40,186 bases of DNA from a virus (lineage: Duplodnaviria > Heunggongvirae > Uroviricota > Caudoviricetes): positions 1 to 40,186 of the IMG/VR virus record IMGVR_UViG_2728369554_000009; one strand, 5' to 3'. This document shows, in pieces, positions 5,839 to 33,228 of this stretch. The stretch's first letter is position 1. Every line of letters starts with the position of its first letter. Below the pieces are notes generated by a model, which saw only the letters and a program-made list of their open reading frames with translations, was not told where the DNA came from and did no database searches. The position numbers and the translations under genes were made by a program.

Positions 5839-6069
5839 ATGAGCGATAACGGACATTTCGATTTCAAAAAGCACTGGCTTGCACTTACTCCGGATGAGCG
5901 TGAAGCCTTCGCACAGGAAGCCGGAACGACGAGTCACTATATCCAGACTCACTTAACAGGTAAGCGAAAAATGCCAGGTAAAGTATTGATGAATGGGCTT
6001 TTTAAAGCCTGTAAAACAAGACAATGGCTGCGCTCAAAAGCAGAACTGGCATACTTCTTCTACTCATGA
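5839..6069 (+). CDS. Cro-like small HTH regulator
   Basis: 76 aa; EREAFAQEAGTTSHYIQTHLTGKRKMP HTH-like; divergent from repressor gene across a 154-bp region holding operator-like palindromes; followed by intrinsic terminator. Confidence 0.55.
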   Translation: MSDNGHFDFKKHWLALTPDEREAFAQEAGTTSHYIQTHLTGKRKMPGKVLMNGLFKACKTRQWLRSKAELAYFFYS

Positions 6070-6089
6070 TATCCAGCTACAACCCTCTG

Positions 6090-6113
6090 TAGACCGCCAC
6101 CCGGCGGTCTTTT
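6090..6113 (+). terminator. Intrinsic terminator after Cro-like gene
   Basis: AGACCGCC-ACCC-GGCGGTCT hairpin followed by TTTTC. Confidence 0.7.
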
Positions 6114-6124
6114 CATATCTATTC

Positions 6125-6139
6125 GTACCTCAAAGGTAA
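6125..6139. promoter_or_regulatory. Operator-like palindrome (imperfect, GTACC-N5-GGTAA)
   Basis: GTACCTCAAAGGTAA downstream of cro-like terminator, upstream of 6219 gene. Confidence 0.4.
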
Positions 6140-6218
6140 TAAAAAACCAAATCTGGTTGATCTTTTTTTGTGTCAGCACAAAATAACCGTAATCCCAATA
6201 CTAATAACAGGGCTTACC

Positions 6219-6419
6219 ATGGAAATCATTACACGTATTGATGCCGCAAAGCGCGGACTTAAACGCTACTACACCGGAAAACCATGTAAGCACGGACATG
6301 ACAGTGAACGCTGGGTTTACAACGGACACTGTGTTGAGTGCACCATGGAATCAAACCGTCGCATCAGGGCAGAGATTAAGCAGATCATGATTAATTCCAC
6401 CCCACAACATTCAAGCTGA
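6219..6419 (+). CDS. Small Cys/His-rich protein at the cII position (function unknown)
   Basis: ATG at 6219 (MEIITRIDAAKRGLKRYYTGKPCKHGHDSERWVYNGHCVECT...); C-x-H-x-H...C-x-x-C suggests a zinc-binding fold; the ORF-track start at 6168 is TTG. Confidence 0.45.
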   Translation: MEIITRIDAAKRGLKRYYTGKPCKHGHDSERWVYNGHCVECTMESNRRIRAEIKQIMINSTPQHSS

Positions 6420-14129: not shown

Positions 14130-15809
14130 ATGGCGGAAACAACTAAAGAGCGATTGAACAAACAGTTCGCACAACTTGAAAGCGAGCGTCAGTCGTTCGA
14201 GCCGCACTGGCGCGAGTTGAGTGATTACATCAACCCGCGTGGTTCCCGCTTTCTGACTTCTGAGGTCAACCGTAACGATCGACGCAATACACGCATTATT
14301 GATTCGACCGGGACTATGGCGGCGCGCACTCTCGCCAGCGGCATGATGTCAGGCATCACAAGCCCCGCGCGTCCGTGGTTTCGCCTGGCTACGCCAGATC
14401 CTGAAATGATGGATTATGGCCCTGTTAAGTTGTGGCTTGAGGCGGTGCAGAACCGCATGAACGATATGTTCAATAAGTCGAATCTCTATCAGTCGCTGCC
14501 GCAGTTATACGGAAGCCTCGGCACATACAGCACTGGTGCAATGGCAGTGCTGGAGGATGACGAGGACATCATTCGCACAATGCCATTCCCGATAGGCAGT
14601 TACTACCTGGCTAACTCACCTCGTGGCAGTGTGGACACCTGTTTTCGCAAGTTCTCTATGACTGTTCGTCAGCTTGTTCAGGAGTTCGGGCTAAATAACG
14701 TCAGCGAATCCGTAAAAAGCATGTGGGAAAGCGGCACCTACGAGAAGTGGATTGAAGTGATGCATTCGGTTTACCCGAACATTGACCGCGATACATCGAA
14801 GCTGGATAGCAAGAACAAGCCATTCAAATCGGTTTATTACGAGGTTGGTGGCGATAACGACAAGTTGTTGCGTGAGTCCGGATTCGATGAGTTTCCAATT
14901 ATGGCTCCGAGCTGGGAAGTTAACGGCGAAGATGTTTATGGATCATCATGCCCGGGTATGCTGGCGCTTGGACCTGTTAAGGCATTGCAGCTTCTCCAGA
15001 AGCGCAAGTCGCAGTTGATTGATAAAGCCACCAATCCGCCGATGGTTGCTCCGACTTCCCTCAAGAATCAGCGTGCCTCCCTTCTTCCTGGCGACATCAC
15101 GTATATCGATCAGATTACTGGTCAGGATGGTTTCAGGCCTGCTTATCTGGTTAACCCCAGTACAGCAGATTTGGTGGCAGACATTCAGGACACCCGTCAA
15201 ATCATTAACAGCGCCTACTTTGTCGATCTGTTCATGATGTTGCAGAACATCAATACCCGCTCGATGCCTGTTGAAGCGGTGATCGAAATGAAAGAAGAAA
15301 AACTTCTGATGTTGGGGCCGGTTCTGGAGCGTCTGAACGACGAATGTCTTAATCCTCTCATTGACCGCGCTTTCTCGATGATGGTGCGTAAAAACATGCT
15401 GCCGCCACCGCCTGACGCGATGGAAGGTATGCCCCTGAAGGTCGAATACATTTCCGTCATGGCTCAGGCGCAGAAGTCTATCGGCCTGTCCAGTCTGGCG
15501 TCCACGGTTAACTTCATTGGTCAACTTGCGCAAGCGAAACCAGAAGCTCTCGACAAACTCAACGTTGATCAGGCGATCGATGCATTCGCTGATATGTCCG
15601 GAGTGTCTCCAACCGTCATTGTTCCGCAGGAACAGGTTGAGCAGGCTCGCCAGCAACGGGCACAGCAACAACAGCAGCAACAAATGATGGCGATGGGGAT
15701 GGCGGCGGCACAGGGTGCCAAGACGCTAAGCGAAGCTAAAACTTCGGATCCGAGTGTTTTGTCAGCTATGGCGAATGCAGTTAGTGGTCAGGGTGGGCAA
15801 TCACAATGA
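14130..15809 (+). CDS. Portal (head-to-tail connector) protein, T7-like
   Basis: 559 aa; downstream of terL; Q-rich C-terminus QQRAQQQQQQQMMAMGMAAAQGA resembles the T7 gp8 tail (recalled from memory). Confidence 0.88.
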   Translation: MAETTKERLNKQFAQLESERQSFEPHWRELSDYINPRGSRFLTSEVNRNDRRNTRIIDSTGTMAARTLASGMMSGITSPARPWFRLATPDPEMMDYGPVKLWLEAVQNRMNDMFNKSNLYQSLPQLYGSLGTYSTGAMAVLEDDEDIIRTMPFPIGSYYLANSPRGSVDTCFRKFSMTVRQLVQEFGLNNVSESVKSMWESGTYEKWIEVMHSVYPNIDRDTSKLDSKNKPFKSVYYEVGGDNDKLLRESGFDEFPIMAPSWEVNGEDVYGSSCPGMLALGPVKALQLLQKRKSQLIDKATNPPMVAPTSLKNQRASLLPGDITYIDQITGQDGFRPAYLVNPSTADLVADIQDTRQIINSAYFVDLFMMLQNINTRSMPVEAVIEMKEEKLLMLGPVLERLNDECLNPLIDRAFSMMVRKNMLPPPPDAMEGMPLKVEYISVMAQAQKSIGLSSLASTVNFIGQLAQAKPEALDKLNVDQAIDAFADMSGVSPTVIVPQEQVEQARQQRAQQQQQQQMMAMGMAAAQGAKTLSEAKTSDPSVLSAMANAVSGQGGQSQ

Positions 15810-16102
15810 CAGATTACGAAGACGATCAACTGAAAGAAGAAAACGCCCGTAAGCAACGTGACATGGCACAGCGTGAAATTGATGACATTTGCTTTGTCAT
15901 GAGCAGTGAACAGGGGCGTCGCGTTGTCTGGTCGGTGCTGGAGAAAGGCCGTGTGTTTTCCGCTATCTCACCGATGGACGCTATGGCAATGGCATTTAAT
16001 GAGGGGCAACGCAATCTGGCGCTGGAACTGTTTCAGCGCGTTATGGCGCATTGCCCTGAACAGTATTTGAAGATGGCCAAAGAGGCCAGTGAACAGGAGT
16101 GA
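15806..16102 (+). CDS. Hypothetical head-assembly protein
   Basis: 98 aa, overlaps portal stop; between portal and scaffold. Confidence 0.5.
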   Translation: MTDYEDDQLKEENARKQRDMAQREIDDICFVMSSEQGRRVVWSVLEKGRVFSAISPMDAMAMAFNEGQRNLALELFQRVMAHCPEQYLKMAKEASEQE

Positions 16103-16104
16103 TC

Positions 16105-16800
16105 ATGAATTTATTTGAGCGTTTGCTGTATCGCCGTCTTTGCAATGAGCAACCAGTCGATGGTGGAGCAGCTCCGGCTGCGTCAGAACCGTCAGCGCCT
16201 GCAGGTGATAACCCTGCTCCAGTTGGTGATCCATCACAACAGGAAGGTGATAAGCCACAACCTGTTGCTGATGGCGATAAACCTGATGATGAAAAAAAAT
16301 CTGAAAACGATAAGCAGGGTGAAAAAAAGGACGGCGATAAACCAGAGGGTGCGCCGGAGAAGTACGAATTTCATGCTGCCGAAGGCGTAGAGCTGGATAC
16401 AGAAGCGTTGAAGGAATTCGAGCCGGTGGCGCGAGAACTAAACCTGACCAACGAGCAAGCGCAAAAGCTGGTTGATGCTTATCCGAAGATTCTGGCAGGT
16501 GTGCAGCAGCGCCAGGCAGAAGCCTGGCAGAAAACAACCGAGCAGTGGGCTGCTGATGTAAAAGCTGACAAAGAAATTGGTGGCGACAAGTTGATTTCTA
16601 ACCTTAGCGCCGCACAGCGTGCGCTTGACCAGTTCGGGACACCCGAGCTCAAAGAATATCTGAACACCACCGGGCTGGGTAATCACCCTGATCTGGTCAA
16701 AACGTTCGTGAAAATCGGAAAGGCGATGTCTGAAGATGGCATGGTCACCGGTGGTAATGAAGGCCAGCGTAGTGCGGCCGAAGTGCTCTATGGCAAATAA
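16105..16800 (+). CDS. Scaffolding protein
   Basis: Acidic, low-complexity, helix-prone protein directly upstream of major capsid gene; ATG 16105 after CAGGAG. Confidence 0.7.
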   Translation: MNLFERLLYRRLCNEQPVDGGAAPAASEPSAPAGDNPAPVGDPSQQEGDKPQPVADGDKPDDEKKSENDKQGEKKDGDKPEGAPEKYEFHAAEGVELDTEALKEFEPVARELNLTNEQAQKLVDAYPKILAGVQQRQAEAWQKTTEQWAADVKADKEIGGDKLISNLSAAQRALDQFGTPELKEYLNTTGLGNHPDLVKTFVKIGKAMSEDGMVTGGNEGQRSAAEVLYGK

Positions 16801-16814
16801 GAGAGGAAATGACA

Positions 16815-17801
16815 ATGGCTGTTAAAGGCTTAACTGCGCTAACGCTGGCTGACTGGGGTAAGCGCGTCGATCCAAACGGGAAAGTCGATAAGATTATCGA
16901 GCTTCTCAGTCAAACCAACCCAATCCTTCAGGATATGCCTTTTGTTGAAGGAAACCTTCCTACCGGACACCGAACCACCATTCGTTCTGGTTTGCCTTCC
17001 GCTACCTGGCGTTTGCTGAACTATGGCGTACAACCGAGCAAATCAACAACGGTGCAGGTCACTGATTCCATTGGCATGCTGGAAACCTATGCTGAAGTCG
17101 ATAAGTCTCTGGCTGATCTGAACGGTAATACTGCCGAATTCCGCCTGTCTGAAGACCGAGCATTTATTGAAGCGATGAATCAGGCGATGGCGCAGACGCT
17201 GTTTTACGGTGATTCCAGCGTTAACCCTCAGCAGTTTATGGGACTGTCCTCCCGCTATTCCAGCCTGTCTGCGGGTAATGCTCAGAACATCATTGATGCT
17301 GGTGGCACGGGTACAGATAACACTTCAATCTGGTTAGTGGTGTGGGGCGAAAACACCGTGCATGGCATCTTCCCGAAAGGGAAGAAGGCTGGCATCCAGA
17401 TGGAAGATAAAGGCCAGGTGACACTGGAAGATGCTAATGGCGGCAAGTACGAAGGTTATCGTACCCATTATAAGTGGGACAACGGGCTGACATTGCGTGA
17501 CTGGCGCTATGTTGTTCGCATTGCAAACATCGATGTCAGCAATCTTGACGATCCTTCTACTGCTGCGAATATCGCAAAACTGATGATTCGTGCCCTTCAT
17601 CGAATCCCAAATCGTGGGATGGGACGTCCTATTTTCTACATGAACAGAACCATTAACGAAGTGCTTGACCTGCAATCTCTGGAGAAGAGTTCTCTGGCGA
17701 TCAGCGTGAAAGAGACAGAAGGCGAATGGTGGACAGAACTTCGTGGTGTGCCGATTCGCGAAACTGACGCACTTCTGGAAACAGAAGCCCGCGTGGTGTA
17801 A
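16815..17801 (+). CDS. Major capsid protein (HK97-fold type)
   Basis: ~329 aa after scaffold gene; ATG 16815 6 nt after GAGAGGAA; size and position typical of a podovirus major capsid protein. Confidence 0.8.
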   Translation: MAVKGLTALTLADWGKRVDPNGKVDKIIELLSQTNPILQDMPFVEGNLPTGHRTTIRSGLPSATWRLLNYGVQPSKSTTVQVTDSIGMLETYAEVDKSLADLNGNTAEFRLSEDRAFIEAMNQAMAQTLFYGDSSVNPQQFMGLSSRYSSLSAGNAQNIIDAGGTGTDNTSIWLVVWGENTVHGIFPKGKKAGIQMEDKGQVTLEDANGGKYEGYRTHYKWDNGLTLRDWRYVVRIANIDVSNLDDPSTAANIAKLMIRALHRIPNRGMGRPIFYMNRTINEVLDLQSLEKSSLAISVKETEGEWWTELRGVPIRETDALLETEARVV

Positions 17802-17852
17802 CGCCTGTTATTAACCTGTGGGCCGCAACAGGCCCACTAATGGAGAAAGAAG

Positions 17853-18290
17853 ATGATCACCGACAAACTGTTGATGTTCTCCGAAGCTCAGGCGGTTACG
17901 AATACCGCGGCTTCTACTGACGTAATCGATCTCGGTCCAATTGATGGAAACCGTCGCGATATCGGCGTGGGTTATCCGCTTGAGTTTTGGGCGCTGGTTA
18001 ACACAGCCGCCGCGGCAAGCGGTGATGCAACTGTAAACATCCAGTTGCAGACGAGTGAGAATAACAGCTCATGGACCACTATTTATGATAGTGGCGCACT
18101 GGCAAAGACCGCCCTGACAGCAGGTAAACGAGTTGTTTCTGCAAAGGTGCCTGCCGGTGTTCAGCGATATCTGCGTGTTAACTACTCCGTCGCAACTGGC
18201 CCACTAACGGCTGGCGAATTCACTGCTGGTATCAGTCTTGATGTTGATGCCAATACGCCGTATCCGATCCGCTCAAAAGTAACTGGTTAA
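17853..18290 (+). CDS. Hypothetical virion structural protein (possible capsid decoration)
   Basis: 145 aa; SD GGAGAAAG; directly after capsid gene. Confidence 0.5.
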   Translation: MITDKLLMFSEAQAVTNTAASTDVIDLGPIDGNRRDIGVGYPLEFWALVNTAAAASGDATVNIQLQTSENNSSWTTIYDSGALAKTALTAGKRVVSAKVPAGVQRYLRVNYSVATGPLTAGEFTAGISLDVDANTPYPIRSKVTG

Positions 18291-18300
18291 GGTGATATCG

Positions 18301-18636
18301 ATGTCAGGTGAGAAACCAAGATACCGCGTTCTGCGCCTCTCTCATATCCATAACACTCTGTGGCCGGAGGGGGCAGAAATCGAATACGAAGGTGAGCCTG
18401 GTAGCGCACTGGAACCTGTTAACGATGCAGCCAGACAGGCAAAAGCAAAAGTTGCAGGAAAGGTGTCAATGGCAGCAACCAGCACCAAAATCATCAACGA
18501 TGTGTCAGATGATGGTGAACTGGATAAGCTCCGTGAAGAGTACGAATTGCTCTTTAACGAGAAGCCACACCATAATGCCAAAGCAGAAACGCTCCGCGAG
18601 AAGATCGCAGATAAGCGTAAAGAACTGGGCGTGTAA
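18301..18636 (+). CDS. Hypothetical structural-module protein
   Basis: ATG 18301 after AAGGTGA; followed by intrinsic terminator 18654-18674. Confidence 0.5.
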   Translation: MSGEKPRYRVLRLSHIHNTLWPEGAEIEYEGEPGSALEPVNDAARQAKAKVAGKVSMAATSTKIINDVSDDGELDKLREEYELLFNEKPHHNAKAETLREKIADKRKELGV

Positions 18637-18653
18637 GCCTCGCGAATCAGACA

Positions 18654-18674
18654 AGGGGCTTCGGCCCCTTTATT
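18654..18674 (+). terminator. Intrinsic terminator inside structural operon
   Basis: AGGGGC-TTCG-GCCCCT hairpin followed by TTATT. Confidence 0.6.
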
Positions 18675-18686
18675 GCAGGAGTGTAT

Positions 18687-19010
18687 ATGGAACTCGTAAA
18701 CCTCAAAACCGGCACTGACAGCTACCAGGATGAGAGCGGAGAAACCAGAACTCGAGATGAATACCCGTGGGGGCTGTGCATCACTCTTAATAACGACACA
18801 TTGAATAAGCTGAAGGCGCAACCTCAGGGCGTCGGAACAGAAGTGATGATAACTGCAAAAGCTGTTATTCGAGGCCTGTCTGCCAGAGAAACTGACGATG
18901 GTGTTAATCGCAGCGCCGATCTGCAGATCACTGATATGGCGATCGCTCCTGTTTCCGGGGATGTAGAAAAATCAGCGGCTGAAACCCTGTACGGCAATGG
19001 GGGTGAGTAA
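18687..19010 (+). CDS. Hypothetical virion protein carrying scaffold-like C-terminal motif
   Basis: ATG 18687 after AGGAG; C-terminus KSAAETLYG shares motif with scaffold C-terminus RSAAEVLYGK. Confidence 0.5.
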   Translation: MELVNLKTGTDSYQDESGETRTRDEYPWGLCITLNNDTLNKLKAQPQGVGTEVMITAKAVIRGLSARETDDGVNRSADLQITDMAIAPVSGDVEKSAAETLYGNGGE

Positions 19011-19615
19011 TGGCCTCTGTAGTAGAGATCTGCAATCGTGCGCTGTCCAATATTGGCAACAGCCGCAGTATTAACAGCCTGACGGAAGCCAGCAAGGAAG
19101 CGGGGGAATGTTCGCTGCACTTTGAGGCCTGCCGTGATGCTGTGCTTTCTGATTTTGACTGGAACTTTGCTACCAAACGCGTGGCGCTTGCAGATACGAG
19201 CAATCCACCGCCTGACTGGGAATATGCGTATCAGTACCCGTCCGATTGTCTGCGCATTACTGAAATTATGCTTCCTGGTGTACGCAATCCAACAGCAGCA
19301 ATGCGCGTTCAGTACGAAGTTGGTGCAGACACCAACGGAACAGGAAAGTTGATCTACACAGACCAGCCGCAGGCATGGCTCAAGTATGTCTCTCGCGTTT
19401 CAGATGTGAACATGTTTGATGCCATTTTTATGGAGGCGTTGGCCTGGCGTCTTGCGGCAGCTATTAACATGGCGTTGACTGGGAATGCAGACCTCGGTAC
19501 GTTTGCCCTCAATATGTACAATCGCGTGATTCTTAGTGCTGGCTCGCATAGCCAGAATGAATCACAGGAACCACTGCCACCGGTTGACGAGTTTACCATT
19601 GCGAGGTTGTCCTGA
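19010..19615 (+). CDS. Tail adaptor (T7 gp11-like tail tubular protein A)
   Basis: 201 aa; position directly before nozzle gene; loose similarity to T7 gp11; TAATG overlap with upstream gene. Confidence 0.6.
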   Translation: MASVVEICNRALSNIGNSRSINSLTEASKEAGECSLHFEACRDAVLSDFDWNFATKRVALADTSNPPPDWEYAYQYPSDCLRITEIMLPGVRNPTAAMRVQYEVGADTNGTGKLIYTDQPQAWLKYVSRVSDVNMFDAIFMEALAWRLAAAINMALTGNADLGTFALNMYNRVILSAGSHSQNESQEPLPPVDEFTIARLS

Positions 19616-29861: not shown

Positions 29862-30008
29862 GTTGATAGTAGTGACAAGTTTGAAACATCGCTGGTTGTA
29901 AGCCAGCAGATGCTCGTTATTTTACATCGCGGTACAATTTCTCGCTGGTGGCTCTTTTATACACCTTAACCAAATATGGTTGATTTTGATATTTATCTTC
30001 GTCTATTA

Positions 30009-30023
30009 TTACCTTTTCGGTAA
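30009..30023. promoter_or_regulatory. Operator-like palindrome TTACC-N5-GGTAA at head of Bro-N antirepressor leader
   Basis: TTACCTTTTCGGTAA, followed by TTTACA-N17-CATAGT promoter-like hexamers. Confidence 0.5.
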
Positions 30024-30103
30024 ATTTACATCGCACTCCTCTTGTGCCATAGTAATCGGGCACTGGCAAAATCCAGTGCCGGGATTGGTCTCCCGGATTA
30101 CTA
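30009..30103. repeat. Left arm of perfect 95-bp inverted repeat (antirepressor leader)
   Basis: Reverse complement of 33103-33197 with no mismatches by eye; includes palindrome 30009-30023, -35-like TTTACA and two hairpins. Confidence 0.85.
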
Positions 30104-30290
30104 CAGAGGCACATATGCCGCATAAGCGGTTTTTTTATGTGTAAAGCGCACCTATTCTATGGTGGGCTGTGTGGGGGCACCGAAAGGTGCGCCGGGTTCC
30201 TTTGTAGCCGGTAAGACCAACTCTGCACAGTTCACCACCATCTGATTGGTCTCAGCGGTGGTGATTAACCTAACTACAAAGGTGATCGCC
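30024..30290 (+). ncRNA. Structured 5' leader / candidate sRNA upstream of Bro-N antirepressor gene
   Basis: Hairpins at 30059-30080, 30079-30096, terminator hairpin+T7 at 30118-30136, GAAA-tetraloop hairpin 30177-30190, 8-bp-stem hairpin 30232-30264; mirrored with compensatory changes in the AntA leader. Confidence 0.45.
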
Positions 30291-30983
30291 ATGAATACCA
30301 AACCTTCCATCTTTTCCTTTGAGTCATCCTGCCAGATCCGTATGTTCATGATTGACGGAGAACCTTGGTTTGTCACCAAAGATGTGTGCAATGCTTTGAA
30401 TATTGATGTTACACAAGCGAGAAAACTTGATAAAAAAGGCTGGAACAAAAAGGGGCTGTATTCAATACAGACCCCTGGTGGAATACAAGAACTATCCATC
30501 GTTTCAGAATCAGGTCTCTACATCCTTATTCTGCGTTGCAAAGAGGCAATGACTGAGGGAACGAGAGCATTCAGATTTCTTGAATGGGTTACAGGTGAGG
30601 TTCTTCCTCAGATCCGCCGCACCGGAAGTTACATTAAAAACTCGCTCCCGCAGGAAGAACGCATAAAGATGGTTGCCGACCAGGTAGCCAACGCCACGGC
30701 GTCAGCAGTAATGCAGGCGATGAAGATAGAGAACAAAACCTACAGTGCCCCGCTGAAGCCCGGCTACCGCAGCCTGATTCATTCTCCGTCTGGTGTTCTC
30801 GGCCTGACGGAGAACTCACTGCTGATGAATCTGCTGAACCAGTTACAGGAAGACGGGCACGATGTATCGGGCGCGGCGGCGGAGCTGACCACCATGTTCT
30901 GCTACATCGTCGGTGTGAGCAAATGCCTGCGTGATATCCAGACGCACGCGGAATACATCAACGACAAGGCAGGGTTCTTCTGA
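30291..30983 (+). CDS. Antirepressor-family protein: Bro-N domain fused to shared C-terminal (KilAC-like) domain
   Basis: N-terminus FSFESSCQIRMFMIDGEPWFVTKDVCNAL...ESGLYILILR fits Bro-N; C-terminal ~78 aa near-identical to C-terminus of 32255-32911 gene; ATG 30291 after AAAGGTGA. Confidence 0.7.
   Translation: MNTKPSIFSFESSCQIRMFMIDGEPWFVTKDVCNALNIDVTQARKLDKKGWNKKGLYSIQTPGGIQELSIVSESGLYILILRCKEAMTEGTRAFRFLEWVTGEVLPQIRRTGSYIKNSLPQEERIKMVADQVANATASAVMQAMKIENKTYSAPLKPGYRSLIHSPSGVLGLTENSLLMNLLNQLQEDGHDVSGAAAELTTMFCYIVGVSKCLRDIQTHAEYINDKAGFF
30741..30983. repeat. Left copy of ~243-bp inverted repeat encoding the shared antirepressor C-terminal domain
   Basis: Near-identical (a handful of substitutions) to reverse complement of 32255-32497. 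Confidence 0.85.
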
Positions 30984-31021
30984 CAGAACGGCGGCACAGG
31001 GACGTGCAAAACGAAACTAGC

Positions 31022-32182: not shown

Positions 32183-32254
32183 TAGTACGCTATTCACCCC
32201 CGGTCTGCAATCTGTACAGAATTATTTAAAGGCACATCCCTGTGCCACCGCCCG

Positions 32255-32497
32255 TCAGAAGAACCCTGCCTTGTCGTTGATGTACTCCGCGTGGGTCTGG
32301 ATATCACGCAGGCATTTGCTCACACCGACGATGTAGCAGAACATGGTGGTCAGCTCCGCCGCCGCGCCCGATACGTCGTGCCCGTCGTCCTGTAACTGGT
32401 TCAGCAGATTCATCAGCAGTGAGTTCTCCGTCAGGCCGAGAACACCAGACGGCGAATGAATCAGGCTGCGGTAGCCGGGCTTCAGTGGGGCGCTGTA
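32255..32497. repeat. Right copy of ~243-bp inverted repeat encoding the shared antirepressor C-terminal domain
   Basis: Near-identical to reverse complement of 30741-30983. Confidence 0.85.
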
Positions 32498-32911
32498 TTC
32501 TTTTTTGTCTTCCAGCTTGATCGCCTCCATTATGGCGGGCATGAAGCCTGACAAGACCTTCTCCACTTTTGTTTCTTGTTGTCTTAAACGTTTCTCGCAT
32601 TCAATGAAGTAGCGTCGCACCTGGCGACCTTTTTCGTTACGCTCGACCATCGCCAGCTCTTTGGCTGTATCAAGGGTGAGGTGGTACTCTTTGCGGTTGT
32701 GGCCGCCTCTACCAGATGTTTGCTTTCCCAAATTGGAAAGCAAAATATAGTCTTGATTTTCAATGAATTCGTATTCTGATATGCGATTTGTAATCCATGC
32801 TGCAAACACCTTTTTAACACCTAAAAAAGCGTGCAGATCGCGGGCATTACAAAGTAGGGCTGTTTCGTTAGATATAGTGCCGTTGAATACGGGGATGAGT
32901 TGAGCGTTCAT
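32255..32911 (-). CDS. Antirepressor-family protein: AntA-like N-terminal domain fused to shared C-terminal (KilAC-like) domain
   Basis: N-terminus [28 protein letters not shown]...[22 protein letters not shown] fits AntA; C-terminal ~78 aa near-identical to the Bro-N gene. Confidence 0.7.
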
Positions 32912-33182
32912 GATGGCGTCTCCACTTAGCGAATTACATCACCACCGCTGAGACCAATCAGATGGTGGTGAACTGAACGGAGTTGGTCTTACCGGCCTAA
33001 GTGGTACCGGCGTCCTTTCGGACCCCCATTCAGCCCACCATAATTCTGGCATGACTGTGCTATACGCATAAAAAAACCACGTCTGGCGTGGTATGCGCCA
33101 CTTAGTAATCCGGGAGACCAATCCCGGCACTGGATTTTGCCAGTGCCCGATTACTATGGCACAAGAGGAGTGCGATGTAAAT
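32912..33182 (-). ncRNA. Structured 5' leader / candidate sRNA upstream of AntA antirepressor gene
   Basis: Mirror of the Bro-N leader: same hairpins, terminator stem CCACG-CCAGA-CGTGG+T7 (33076-33090), GTCC-GAAA-GGAC (33012-33023), conserved hairpin 32939-32971. Confidence 0.45.
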
Positions 33183-33197
33183 TTACCGAAAAGGTAA
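33103..33197. repeat. Right arm of perfect 95-bp inverted repeat (antirepressor leader)
   Basis: Reverse complement of 30009-30103. Confidence 0.85.
33183..33197. promoter_or_regulatory. Operator-like palindrome TTACC-N5-GGTAA at head of AntA antirepressor leader
   Basis: TTACCGAAAAGGTAA; mirror of 30009-30023. Confidence 0.5.
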
Positions 33198-33228
33198 ATA
33201 TAAGCACTCCACTTGGTAATTGCAAACC

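Follow-up and report, generated by a model that had tools for sequence, protein, structure and literature searches.

The C-terminus of the phage P22 scaffold binds the coat protein, and signals or ends of comparable use are known from other phages. Phage T4 has a capsid targeting sequence on its internal proteins IPI-III and Alt, protease and scaffold genes are nested in lambda (C/Nu3), Mu (I/Z) and P2 (gpO), and a C-terminal targeting tail of the HK97 protease was reportedly described by Duda, Oh and Hendrix in 2013 (work cited in PMC12749128). For the lineage of phages BPP-1 and epsilon15, which has a non-circularly permuted HK97 fold, no procapsid structure exists to our knowledge. The closest described case is that of phage 80alpha, where the island protein CpmB copies the C-terminal helix-and-hook of the scaffold and binds the same coat site (PMC5644958). 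The subject here is a pair of proteins in an IMG/VR virus record, IMGVR_UViG_2728369554_000009, of which positions 1 to 40,186 were analysed (the whole stretch of 40,186 nucleotides is called the window). Within a tailed-phage head module that has portal, terminase and scaffold-like genes, a 231-residue scaffold-like protein and a 107-residue protein resembling gp10 of epsilon15, termed gp10-like, end in nearly the same short tail.

The window is that of an epsilon15/phiV10-type podophage. Its region 16000-19200 is about 96% identical at the DNA level to Escherichia phages phiV10, TL-2011b and PAS61 (genus Uetakevirus) and about 77% identical to Salmonella relatives. The tail is conserved in both protein families and varies in step in the two proteins of one genome. 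It may be best understood as a shared, co-evolving docking peptide that carries the gp10-like protein into the procapsid, probably by way of the inner face of the coat, a reading to which we give a probability of roughly 60%. A literature search found no published description of this shared tail.

One tail on two head-module proteins

The open reading frame (ORF) of the scaffold-like protein (16105-16800, plus strand) has an ATG start, with a GTG at 16099, and its product ends in GQRSAAEVLYGK before the stop, the last residues being RSAAEVLYGK. The gp10-like ORF (18687-19010, plus strand) ends in VEKSAAETLYGNGGE, or in short form KSAAETLYGNGGE, again directly before its stop codon. The scaffold motif SAAEVLYG, residues 223-230, is encoded at 16771-16794 on the plus strand and is followed by K and the stop; the gp10-like motif SAAETLYG, residues 96-103, is at 18972-18995, also on the plus strand, and is followed by NGGE and the stop. 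The two octapeptides agree at seven of eight positions, only three of which have the same codon in both genes. A sequence-only reading of the window had claimed that the scaffold and a second protein have a C-terminus of the type SAAE[VT]LYG in common, and this is confirmed, with its coordinates correct to within a few bases. When the second tail was shuffled, the observed ungapped BLOSUM62 score of 38 was reached in 2 of 20,000 trials. In a ranking of C-terminal 16-mers taken in pairs (15,576 pairs, from window ORFs of 60 amino acids or more) the two tails come second, and the first-ranked pair is a true inverted gene duplication.

Each tail is tethered by a flexible linker. That of the scaffold is rich in glycine and polar residues (GMVTGGNEGQR, 16738-16770, plus strand), varies in length and sequence in the homologue alignment and has a low predicted local distance difference test (pLDDT) score. 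That of the gp10-like protein (APVSGDVEK, 18945-18971, plus strand) lies between a conserved LQITDM strand and the tail, has a pLDDT below 50 and differs in sequence and length among homologues. In the AlphaFold2 (AF2) models both tails are predicted to form, after these low-confidence linkers, a short helix (AAE[VT]L) and then the Y-G.

A profile search of 1.84 billion cluster representatives gave 3,460 gp10-like clusters (50% identity) at E ≤ 1e-3. From the full-length, top-ranked members 141 representatives were taken, each less than 50% identical to the others, and in 131 of these an [LMFIV][YF] pair falls in the last 16 residues; several of the other 10 have the motif and then a longer extension. 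The gp10-like consensus is K-[SD]-A-A-[DE]-x-L-Y-G, with the aromatic residue 1-6 residues from the end and after a variable linker, and the tail in its general form, on a disordered linker, is A-A-x-x-[L/M/F]-[Y/F]-[G/P/A/D]. The enterobacterial clade has K[ST]AA[EDQ]TLYG nearly invariant between variable flanks, and in 89 gp10-like homologues the conservation of K95, A98, T100, L101, Y102 and G103 is 90% or higher. On the scaffold side R222, A224, A225, E226, V227, Y229 and G230 are invariant in close homologues, and the same motif class is found on scaffolds from prophages (81 of 87) and from metagenomes (70 of 72). Conservation of the motif in homologues is thus evident for the gp10-like proteins and across the scaffold family. 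Scaffolds from genomes that have no gp10-like gene (about 70% of loci) carry the tail too, and it is therefore first of all a scaffold feature. The related loci compared here were collected with the capsid protein as bait; a scan of viral contigs with the gp10-like alignment gave 80 identical loci.

The form of the tail differs between lineages, and the gp10-like tail is closer to the scaffold tail of its own genome than to the tails of other scaffolds. In epsilon15 itself gp6 ends ..SAFYPKK and gp10 ..DAFYPDGEDD, while in BPP-1, where the type is RLY.AS.M, Bbp18 ends ..ARRLYAASNMNP and Bbp20 ..AQRLYGASSMSA. The scaffold and gp10-like ends are ..RAAKLYDKS and ..RAAKFYANT in BcepC6B, PEQRAAKFYANTKT and PEQRAAKFYSNTTT in a Burkholderia prophage (L149), and ..NRMYPDM and ..ARMYADD in Xanthomonas CP2. 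Two Herminiimonas loci have SAADRMYGK with SAADRLYGK (L102) and RMYG in both proteins (L103). In Providencia/Proteus prophages (L126, L157) tyrosine has given way to phenylalanine in both proteins, SAADVLFG in the scaffold and S[AT]ADVLFD(GGE) in its partner. Locus L100 pairs MYPSM with LYPTM, and L140, whose gp10-like protein is divergent, pairs ERIYPTM with ERMYPTM. In MW202640 (L008, gp10-like gene at 6007-6375) a scaffold ending ..ASALYT is accompanied by a gp10-like protein with two tails, ..ATALYG and ..SNALYG. Such tandem double tails are seen in the gp10-like proteins of MW202640 and in protein P0129 (..ATALYGAGSEGSRINNLSNALYGGG).

With one genome taken per clade (n=11), the BLOSUM62 sum for own pairs is 285 as against 134 ± 28 when the pairings are shuffled; the sum was not reached in any of 200,000 permutations, and an alternative choice of representatives gave the same outcome. 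The gp10-like gene has three positions in the head module, before the adaptor (14 loci), after the portal (7 loci) and before the portal (CP2 and L140), and its tail follows that of its own scaffold whatever the gene position. Across genomes the codons of the two genes agree at 49 of 134 identical tail residues, and in L149 at 4 of 12. Such codon mismatch at identical residues argues that the match is kept by selection on the peptide and not by recent gene conversion, which was considered as the origin of the tail identity and rejected on the 49/134 figure. The further claim of the sequence-only reading, that codons differ and conservation is thus at the protein level, stands with these counts.

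The tail is also specific. When the last 20 residues of 7,614 ORFs, from all six frames of 89 related loci, were scored against the scaffold tail of their own locus, gp10-like ORFs took nearly all of the top places. A strict scan for the core motif in same-strand ORFs, with 4,834 tail-versus-core comparisons, had 21 matches, namely 19 gp10-like proteins, the divergent gp10-like protein of L140 and an unrelated 297-residue protein; no further match was found among these 4,834 comparisons. The 297-residue protein is from a Rhodospirillales prophage (L111, 15078-15971) and ends RRARRFYDRTYRR where the scaffold ends ARARRLYDNTYKD, the tails compared being SERRARRFYDRTYRR and PEARARRLYDNTYKD. The cement and adaptor genes of this prophage are separated by a variable block of ORFs, in which the gene for this protein is the one next to the adaptor on its upstream side; no homologue was found in sister loci or the phage collection, and only a sub-threshold match to DUF6973 was obtained. 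The slot between cement and adaptor genes is highly variable in loci L089-L168, where it may hold the gp10-like gene (enterobacterial phages), a 1,246-residue ORF (L109), a 532-residue ORF (L115) or a multi-gene block (L111).

A fourth carrier is a basic protein of 55-59 residues (MPGxGLWANIHAKRERIKxGSGERMRK...) whose gene comes right after the gp10-like gene in Limnohabitans phage DC33 (L006, 6330-6497) and MW202722 (L171, 5001-5180). Its ends are of the SAAEKLYG and SSAEKLYP types in these two phages, SAAEKLYGKDKDKK or SSAEKLYPDQ.... The same 43-residue domain, for which no Pfam family was recognised, is present in about 90 T7-like marine phages, in which the motif is missing from its end (in CRP-804 ...SAKTAKRDK, in P-RSP2 ...SKAYLKKKNA). 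The marine homologues are likewise in the head module, in CRP-804 between the scaffold and capsid genes, and the small basic protein has the tail only in phages of the present capsid type. The motif stands after a flexible linker on four unrelated carriers, the scaffold, the gp10-like protein, the basic protein of 55-59 residues and the 297-residue protein, and is portable. The DC33 record (L006/L170, PQ492659.1) is a podovirus-type genome under an Inoviridae taxonomy line, and the overlap of its ends makes a stretch of the scaffold gene occur twice at the junction of the record. Two further candidates were set aside: 'CPELYPxM' in Bbp19-like proteins is tail-like and is neither conserved nor co-varying with the scaffold, and cement proteins ending DANT[FP]Y are a regular-expression coincidence, that end being exterior in the BPP-1 structure.

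The two proteins in their head module

The scaffold-like ORF ends 8 nucleotides upstream of the major capsid protein gene, and a homologue is immediately upstream of the capsid gene in all of the related loci (about 150). The protein has a low-complexity N-terminus that is rich in Pro, Asp and Lys and predicted to be disordered, a putative helical core, a Gly-rich linker and the C-terminal tail. Its AF2 model is of low confidence (mean pLDDT 48), with residues 1-81 disordered and residues 99-211 predicted to be all helical and without a protease fold. Alignment of 27 diverse homologues shows two conserved segments, PExYxF..PEG and TGLGNHP..IGKA..ED, and no invariant column. The protein has no Pfam domain, no peptidase domain was found in it in Pfam or NCBIfam, and a profile search of PDB sequences gave no real match. 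PHROG 458 is nonetheless labelled 'protease', and the database names, including that of NCBI, are 'peptidase' or 'endoprotease'. A prohead protease identity was considered and rejected, as there is no peptidase family, no invariant residue and an all-helical prediction, and the 'peptidase' name looks like an inherited mis-annotation. Gene position, composition and the low-confidence helical model together give good grounds for regarding it as the scaffold.

The gp10-like protein is acidic (pI 4.4) and matches Pfam PF21628 'Gp10-like' over its full length (profile positions 1-98 of 98, E=1.1e-51) as well as the epsilon15 gp10 sequence (PDB 3J40 chain N, E=2e-21). By these sequence matches it is a homologue of epsilon15 gp10 and BPP-1 Bbp20, an identity that had escaped the sequence-only reading. 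Its AF2 model (pLDDT 77) has two short and one long beta-hairpin and one helix, with residues 92-107 disordered, and no fold match to the model was found outside its own family, the PDB included. The position of the gene between portal and scaffold in BPP-1 prompted consideration of a mini-protease role, which was rejected on the lack of an invariant His, Ser, Cys or Asp. Apparent fusions of gp10-like protein and ClpP in metagenome assemblies (P0021, P0117) are assembly chimeras joined at a shared 'QITDMAI' and not domain fusions.

The remaining genes of the head module in the window are as follows. The portal gene (14130-15809, PF12236) is followed by that of a Bbp19-like protein (15806-16102, assigned with Pfam) and then by the scaffold-like gene. 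The major capsid protein (16809-17801, plus strand) is of the epsilon15 gp7 and BPP-1 Bbp17 type (Pfam PF20911 'GP7', E=2e-148). Downstream of it are a Bbp16-like jellyroll cement protein (17853-18290, plus strand; Pfam PF21190, E=5e-47), a protein of 114 amino acids with no assigned function (18292-18636), the gp10-like protein and the tail adaptor (19010-19615). The adaptor falls in PHROG 394 'tail protein', and its epsilon15 homologue gp11 is annotated as tail tubular protein A.

Between the ORF for the 114-residue protein and the gp10-like gene there is a GC-rich hairpin, AAGGGGC-TTCG-GCCCCTT followed by TATTG (18653-18671), and rho-independent terminators are annotated at the equivalent place in the epsilon15 record. 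Its folding is no better than that of shuffled sequence (z = -0.84) and a terminator scanner made no call; on these two grounds it was rejected as a terminator-like element. Were it to attenuate transcription, the amounts of gp10-like protein would be kept below those of the coat and cement proteins.

Elsewhere in the window there is a large inverted-repeat structure (30004-30984 and 32254-33202). Its arms are of 100 nucleotides (98% complementary), 59 nucleotides (95%) and 257 nucleotides (95%), with 1,269 nucleotides between the inner arms. It frames two convergent antirepressor-like genes, one at 30246-30983 on the plus strand (Bro-N) and the other at 32255-32911 on the minus strand (AntA), whose products have an identical C-terminal 16-mer.

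Proposed docking in the procapsid and competing accounts

The motif [KR]-S-A-A-E-x-L-Y-G would be a short linear docking motif, carried by a disordered linker and lying a few residues short of the C-terminus. On the scaffold it would anchor the protein, within the procapsid, to a partner that is most likely the HK97-fold coat protein, at its inner face. The gp10-like protein, with the motif on a tether of its own, would dock at the same kind of site and so be carried into the procapsid interior during assembly, perhaps to be encapsidated as retained cargo or as an auxiliary internal scaffold. The two tails would drift together in each lineage because both must fit one pocket. The earlier proposal that a shared peptide means one docking mechanism passes all of the sequence tests run, which bear on conservation, co-variation, codon use and grafting onto other proteins.

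The coat is the most likely partner because the motif is on every scaffold and scaffold C-termini bind coat in phages such as P22, which is to be counted here together with 80alpha. The alternative that the docking motif is shared and its partner is the portal, the Bbp19-like protein or another assembly factor, with the gp10-like protein brought not to the shell but to one unique place, for instance the portal vertex, seems improbable. It draws on BPP-1-type gene order, where the gp10-like gene directly follows the portal gene (7 loci), and on the consideration that tail co-variation points to a common partner and not to its identity. However, coat binding by scaffold C-termini is the rule in solved systems, 80alpha being one (PMC5644958); the motif is on a protein needed in hundreds of copies per procapsid, and the Bbp19-like protein is without a co-varying motif. 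The coat sequences themselves have a bearing on this. In both an 81-locus and a 151-locus set the top coat column tracking loss of the scaffold-tail tyrosine (Y to F or W) is D116 of the conserved FRLSED, which we take, judging by the sequence, to be at the start of the spine helix. This position has a residue other than Asp in 9 of 13 non-Tyr lineages as against 14 of 57 Tyr lineages (Fisher p=0.0035), an association that is not significant after correction for multiple testing (family-wise p 0.25 and 0.15) and is weak in the new loci alone, and which therefore is a lead and not evidence. The top-ranked coat columns cluster at residues 105-116, a weak hint for coat, while the lack of significance leaves room for another partner. 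The alignment check that the sequence-only reading had proposed, on co-variation of the motif with the coat protein across related phages, thus gave this non-significant lead.

A further account, somewhat more probable than a partner other than coat and still unlikely, makes the gp10-like protein a CpmB-like auxiliary internal scaffold, which would cross-link coat subunits through its tails in competition with the main scaffold, would tune shell curvature, stability or scaffold release, and would leave or be displaced at maturation. It is a sub-case of the docking model, from which it differs only in the fate and purpose of the protein. The predicted architecture is CpmB-like in that a linker joins a small body of the oligomerisation type to a C-terminal motif that copies the scaffold's, and the tandem tails of some gp10-like proteins would suit cross-linking. 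Against this, the 111-residue epsilon15 gp10 was reportedly detected in infectious virions by proteomics (PMC9207676), about 70% of related head modules make this capsid type with no gp10-like protein, whose oligomerisation is only presumed. Very much less probable is a staple or decoration of the capsid exterior, with the tail as an ancestral relic or as something that a host factor, be it a protease, a chaperone or a degron reader, would bind. PDB 3J40 does model gp10 in exterior two-fold density, and NCBI names the PF21628 family 'capsid staple protein', a name said to go back to epsilon15 electron cryomicroscopy (cryo-EM) models of 2008 and 2013. An exterior staple would contradict docking inside the procapsid; a 2022 re-analysis, however, moves the staple density to a Bbp16 homologue (PMC9207676). 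There the AlphaFold model of gp10 misfits the exterior density, with a map-model correlation of 0.10, while a 130-residue protein fits it at 0.61, and 0.81 after refinement, and its authors consider the gp10 staple assignment probably wrong (PMC9207676). The 130-residue protein is epsilon15 gp8, which its GenBank record ties to BPP-1 Bbp16, and Bbp16 is the cement protein in the 3.5 Å structure of BPP-1 (PMC3863775). Since the window too encodes a Bbp16 homologue, a candidate cement protein that runs counter to the staple label of its gp10-like neighbour, the latter is freed from that role, and the protein encoded at 17853-18290 is likely to be the true exterior staple of this capsid. The lack of any PDB match to the gp10-like AF2 model also speaks against the exterior assignment. 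As for the tail, protein-level co-variation with the scaffold is not what a relic would show, and phages that share a host would be expected to have the same host-factor site, whereas epsilon15 has AFYP and other enterobacterial phages have LYG. The variable distance of the motif from the end, 1-8 residues, would likewise be unexplained by such a site or by a degron. Chance resemblance of two short C-terminal peptides is left with a negligible share: a 7/8 match somewhere in a 40-kb window is not very rare in itself, but more than 20 independent genomes, in which the match is conserved, co-varying and specific, refute it.

Several points weigh against docking of the gp10-like protein to coat by a scaffold tail and need to be kept in mind. 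Besides the D116 result, PDB entry 3J40 and NCBI still put gp10 on the capsid exterior, and the gp10-like gene is in only about 30% of related head modules, its role being an accessory one. The two extra carriers of the tail are each known from one or two genomes. Finally, the identification of the scaffold draws on position, composition and a helical model with a pLDDT of 48, and the databases say peptidase.

If the docking reading is right, PF21628, with its 3,460 clusters and a name taken from a questioned cryo-EM assignment, gains a candidate role, and its neighbouring "peptidase" is indicated to be a scaffold. The likely scaffold-coat contact would be narrowed to about 8 residues for the BPP-1/epsilon15 capsid lineage. 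Perhaps, though with rather less than an even chance, the phages of this type have a general, encapsulin-like way of loading cargo, in which the scaffold tail is copied onto unrelated proteins that are packed and probably delivered to the host; the PF21628 family, the basic, DNA-binding-like mini-protein and the enzyme-sized 297-residue protein would be its carriers. As a portable loading tag the tail would be a natural route for proteins into capsids, with a bearing on injected proteins and on the engineering of BPP-1/epsilon15-type particles. Foreign proteins could then be loaded into these capsids with the tail as an existing tag that is specific to the lineage, and its lineage-specific forms, LYG, AFYP, LFG, RMY and RLY.AS.M, would be ready-made specificity variants.

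Relation to known assembly and loading systems

The principle is already known from 80alpha and CpmB, nested protease and scaffold genes, the tail of the HK97 protease and encapsulin peptides. In the nested genes and HK97, as proposed here, a second protein enters the procapsid by a C-terminal capsid-binding element of the scaffold or delta-domain type. There, however, it is a protease that is carried in, and the common end is either a whole domain or the product of genes that overlap in frame, whereas here two separate genes have about 8 residues in common and no protease domain is detectable.

In T4 a short portable peptide common to several proteins takes them into the prohead core, for later injection. 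That signal is N-terminal, is cut off by the prohead protease and targets the scaffold core, and it is not a mimic of a coat-binding end. With P22 gp8 the likeness is a long scaffold, for the most part disordered or helical, that would dock onto coat by its C-terminal end, as it does in P22; there that end is a folded, charge-driven helix-turn-helix of about 30 residues and has no sequence similarity to the present tail. We know of no natural P22 protein that copies the C-terminal element of gp8. Cargo fused to this element does load P22 shells (PMC9962691).

Encapsulin cargo-loading peptides are alike in being short, tethered, C-terminal, portable, carried by unrelated proteins and, as would be the case here, bound at the inner face of an HK97-fold shell. 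Encapsulins differ in being without scaffold, portal or DNA, in having enzymes as cargo and in the consensus of their peptides. Unlike the encapsulin peptide, the tag here is the scaffold's own tail, and its cargo loading is putative.

The nearest parallel is with 80alpha gp46 and the CpmB protein of SaPI1 (PMC5644958). There too, two proteins have one short C-terminal motif after a flexible region, by which both bind, as proposed here, one site on the HK97-fold coat inside the procapsid, CpmB being small and having an oligomerising body. The helix and hook of 80alpha are matched by the short helix and hook-like turn predicted here (..AAEVL-YG), while the 80alpha motif is RIIK and is unrelated to A-A-x-x-L-Y-G. 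Coat binding has been seen by cryo-EM and genetics in 80alpha, and is what we infer for the present tail. CpmB is from a pirate island that competes with the phage, whereas the gp10-like gene is in the phage's own head module in every locus examined. The gp10-like protein, unlike CpmB, is widespread, with the thousands of clusters already noted, and co-evolves with the scaffold of the phage that encodes it.

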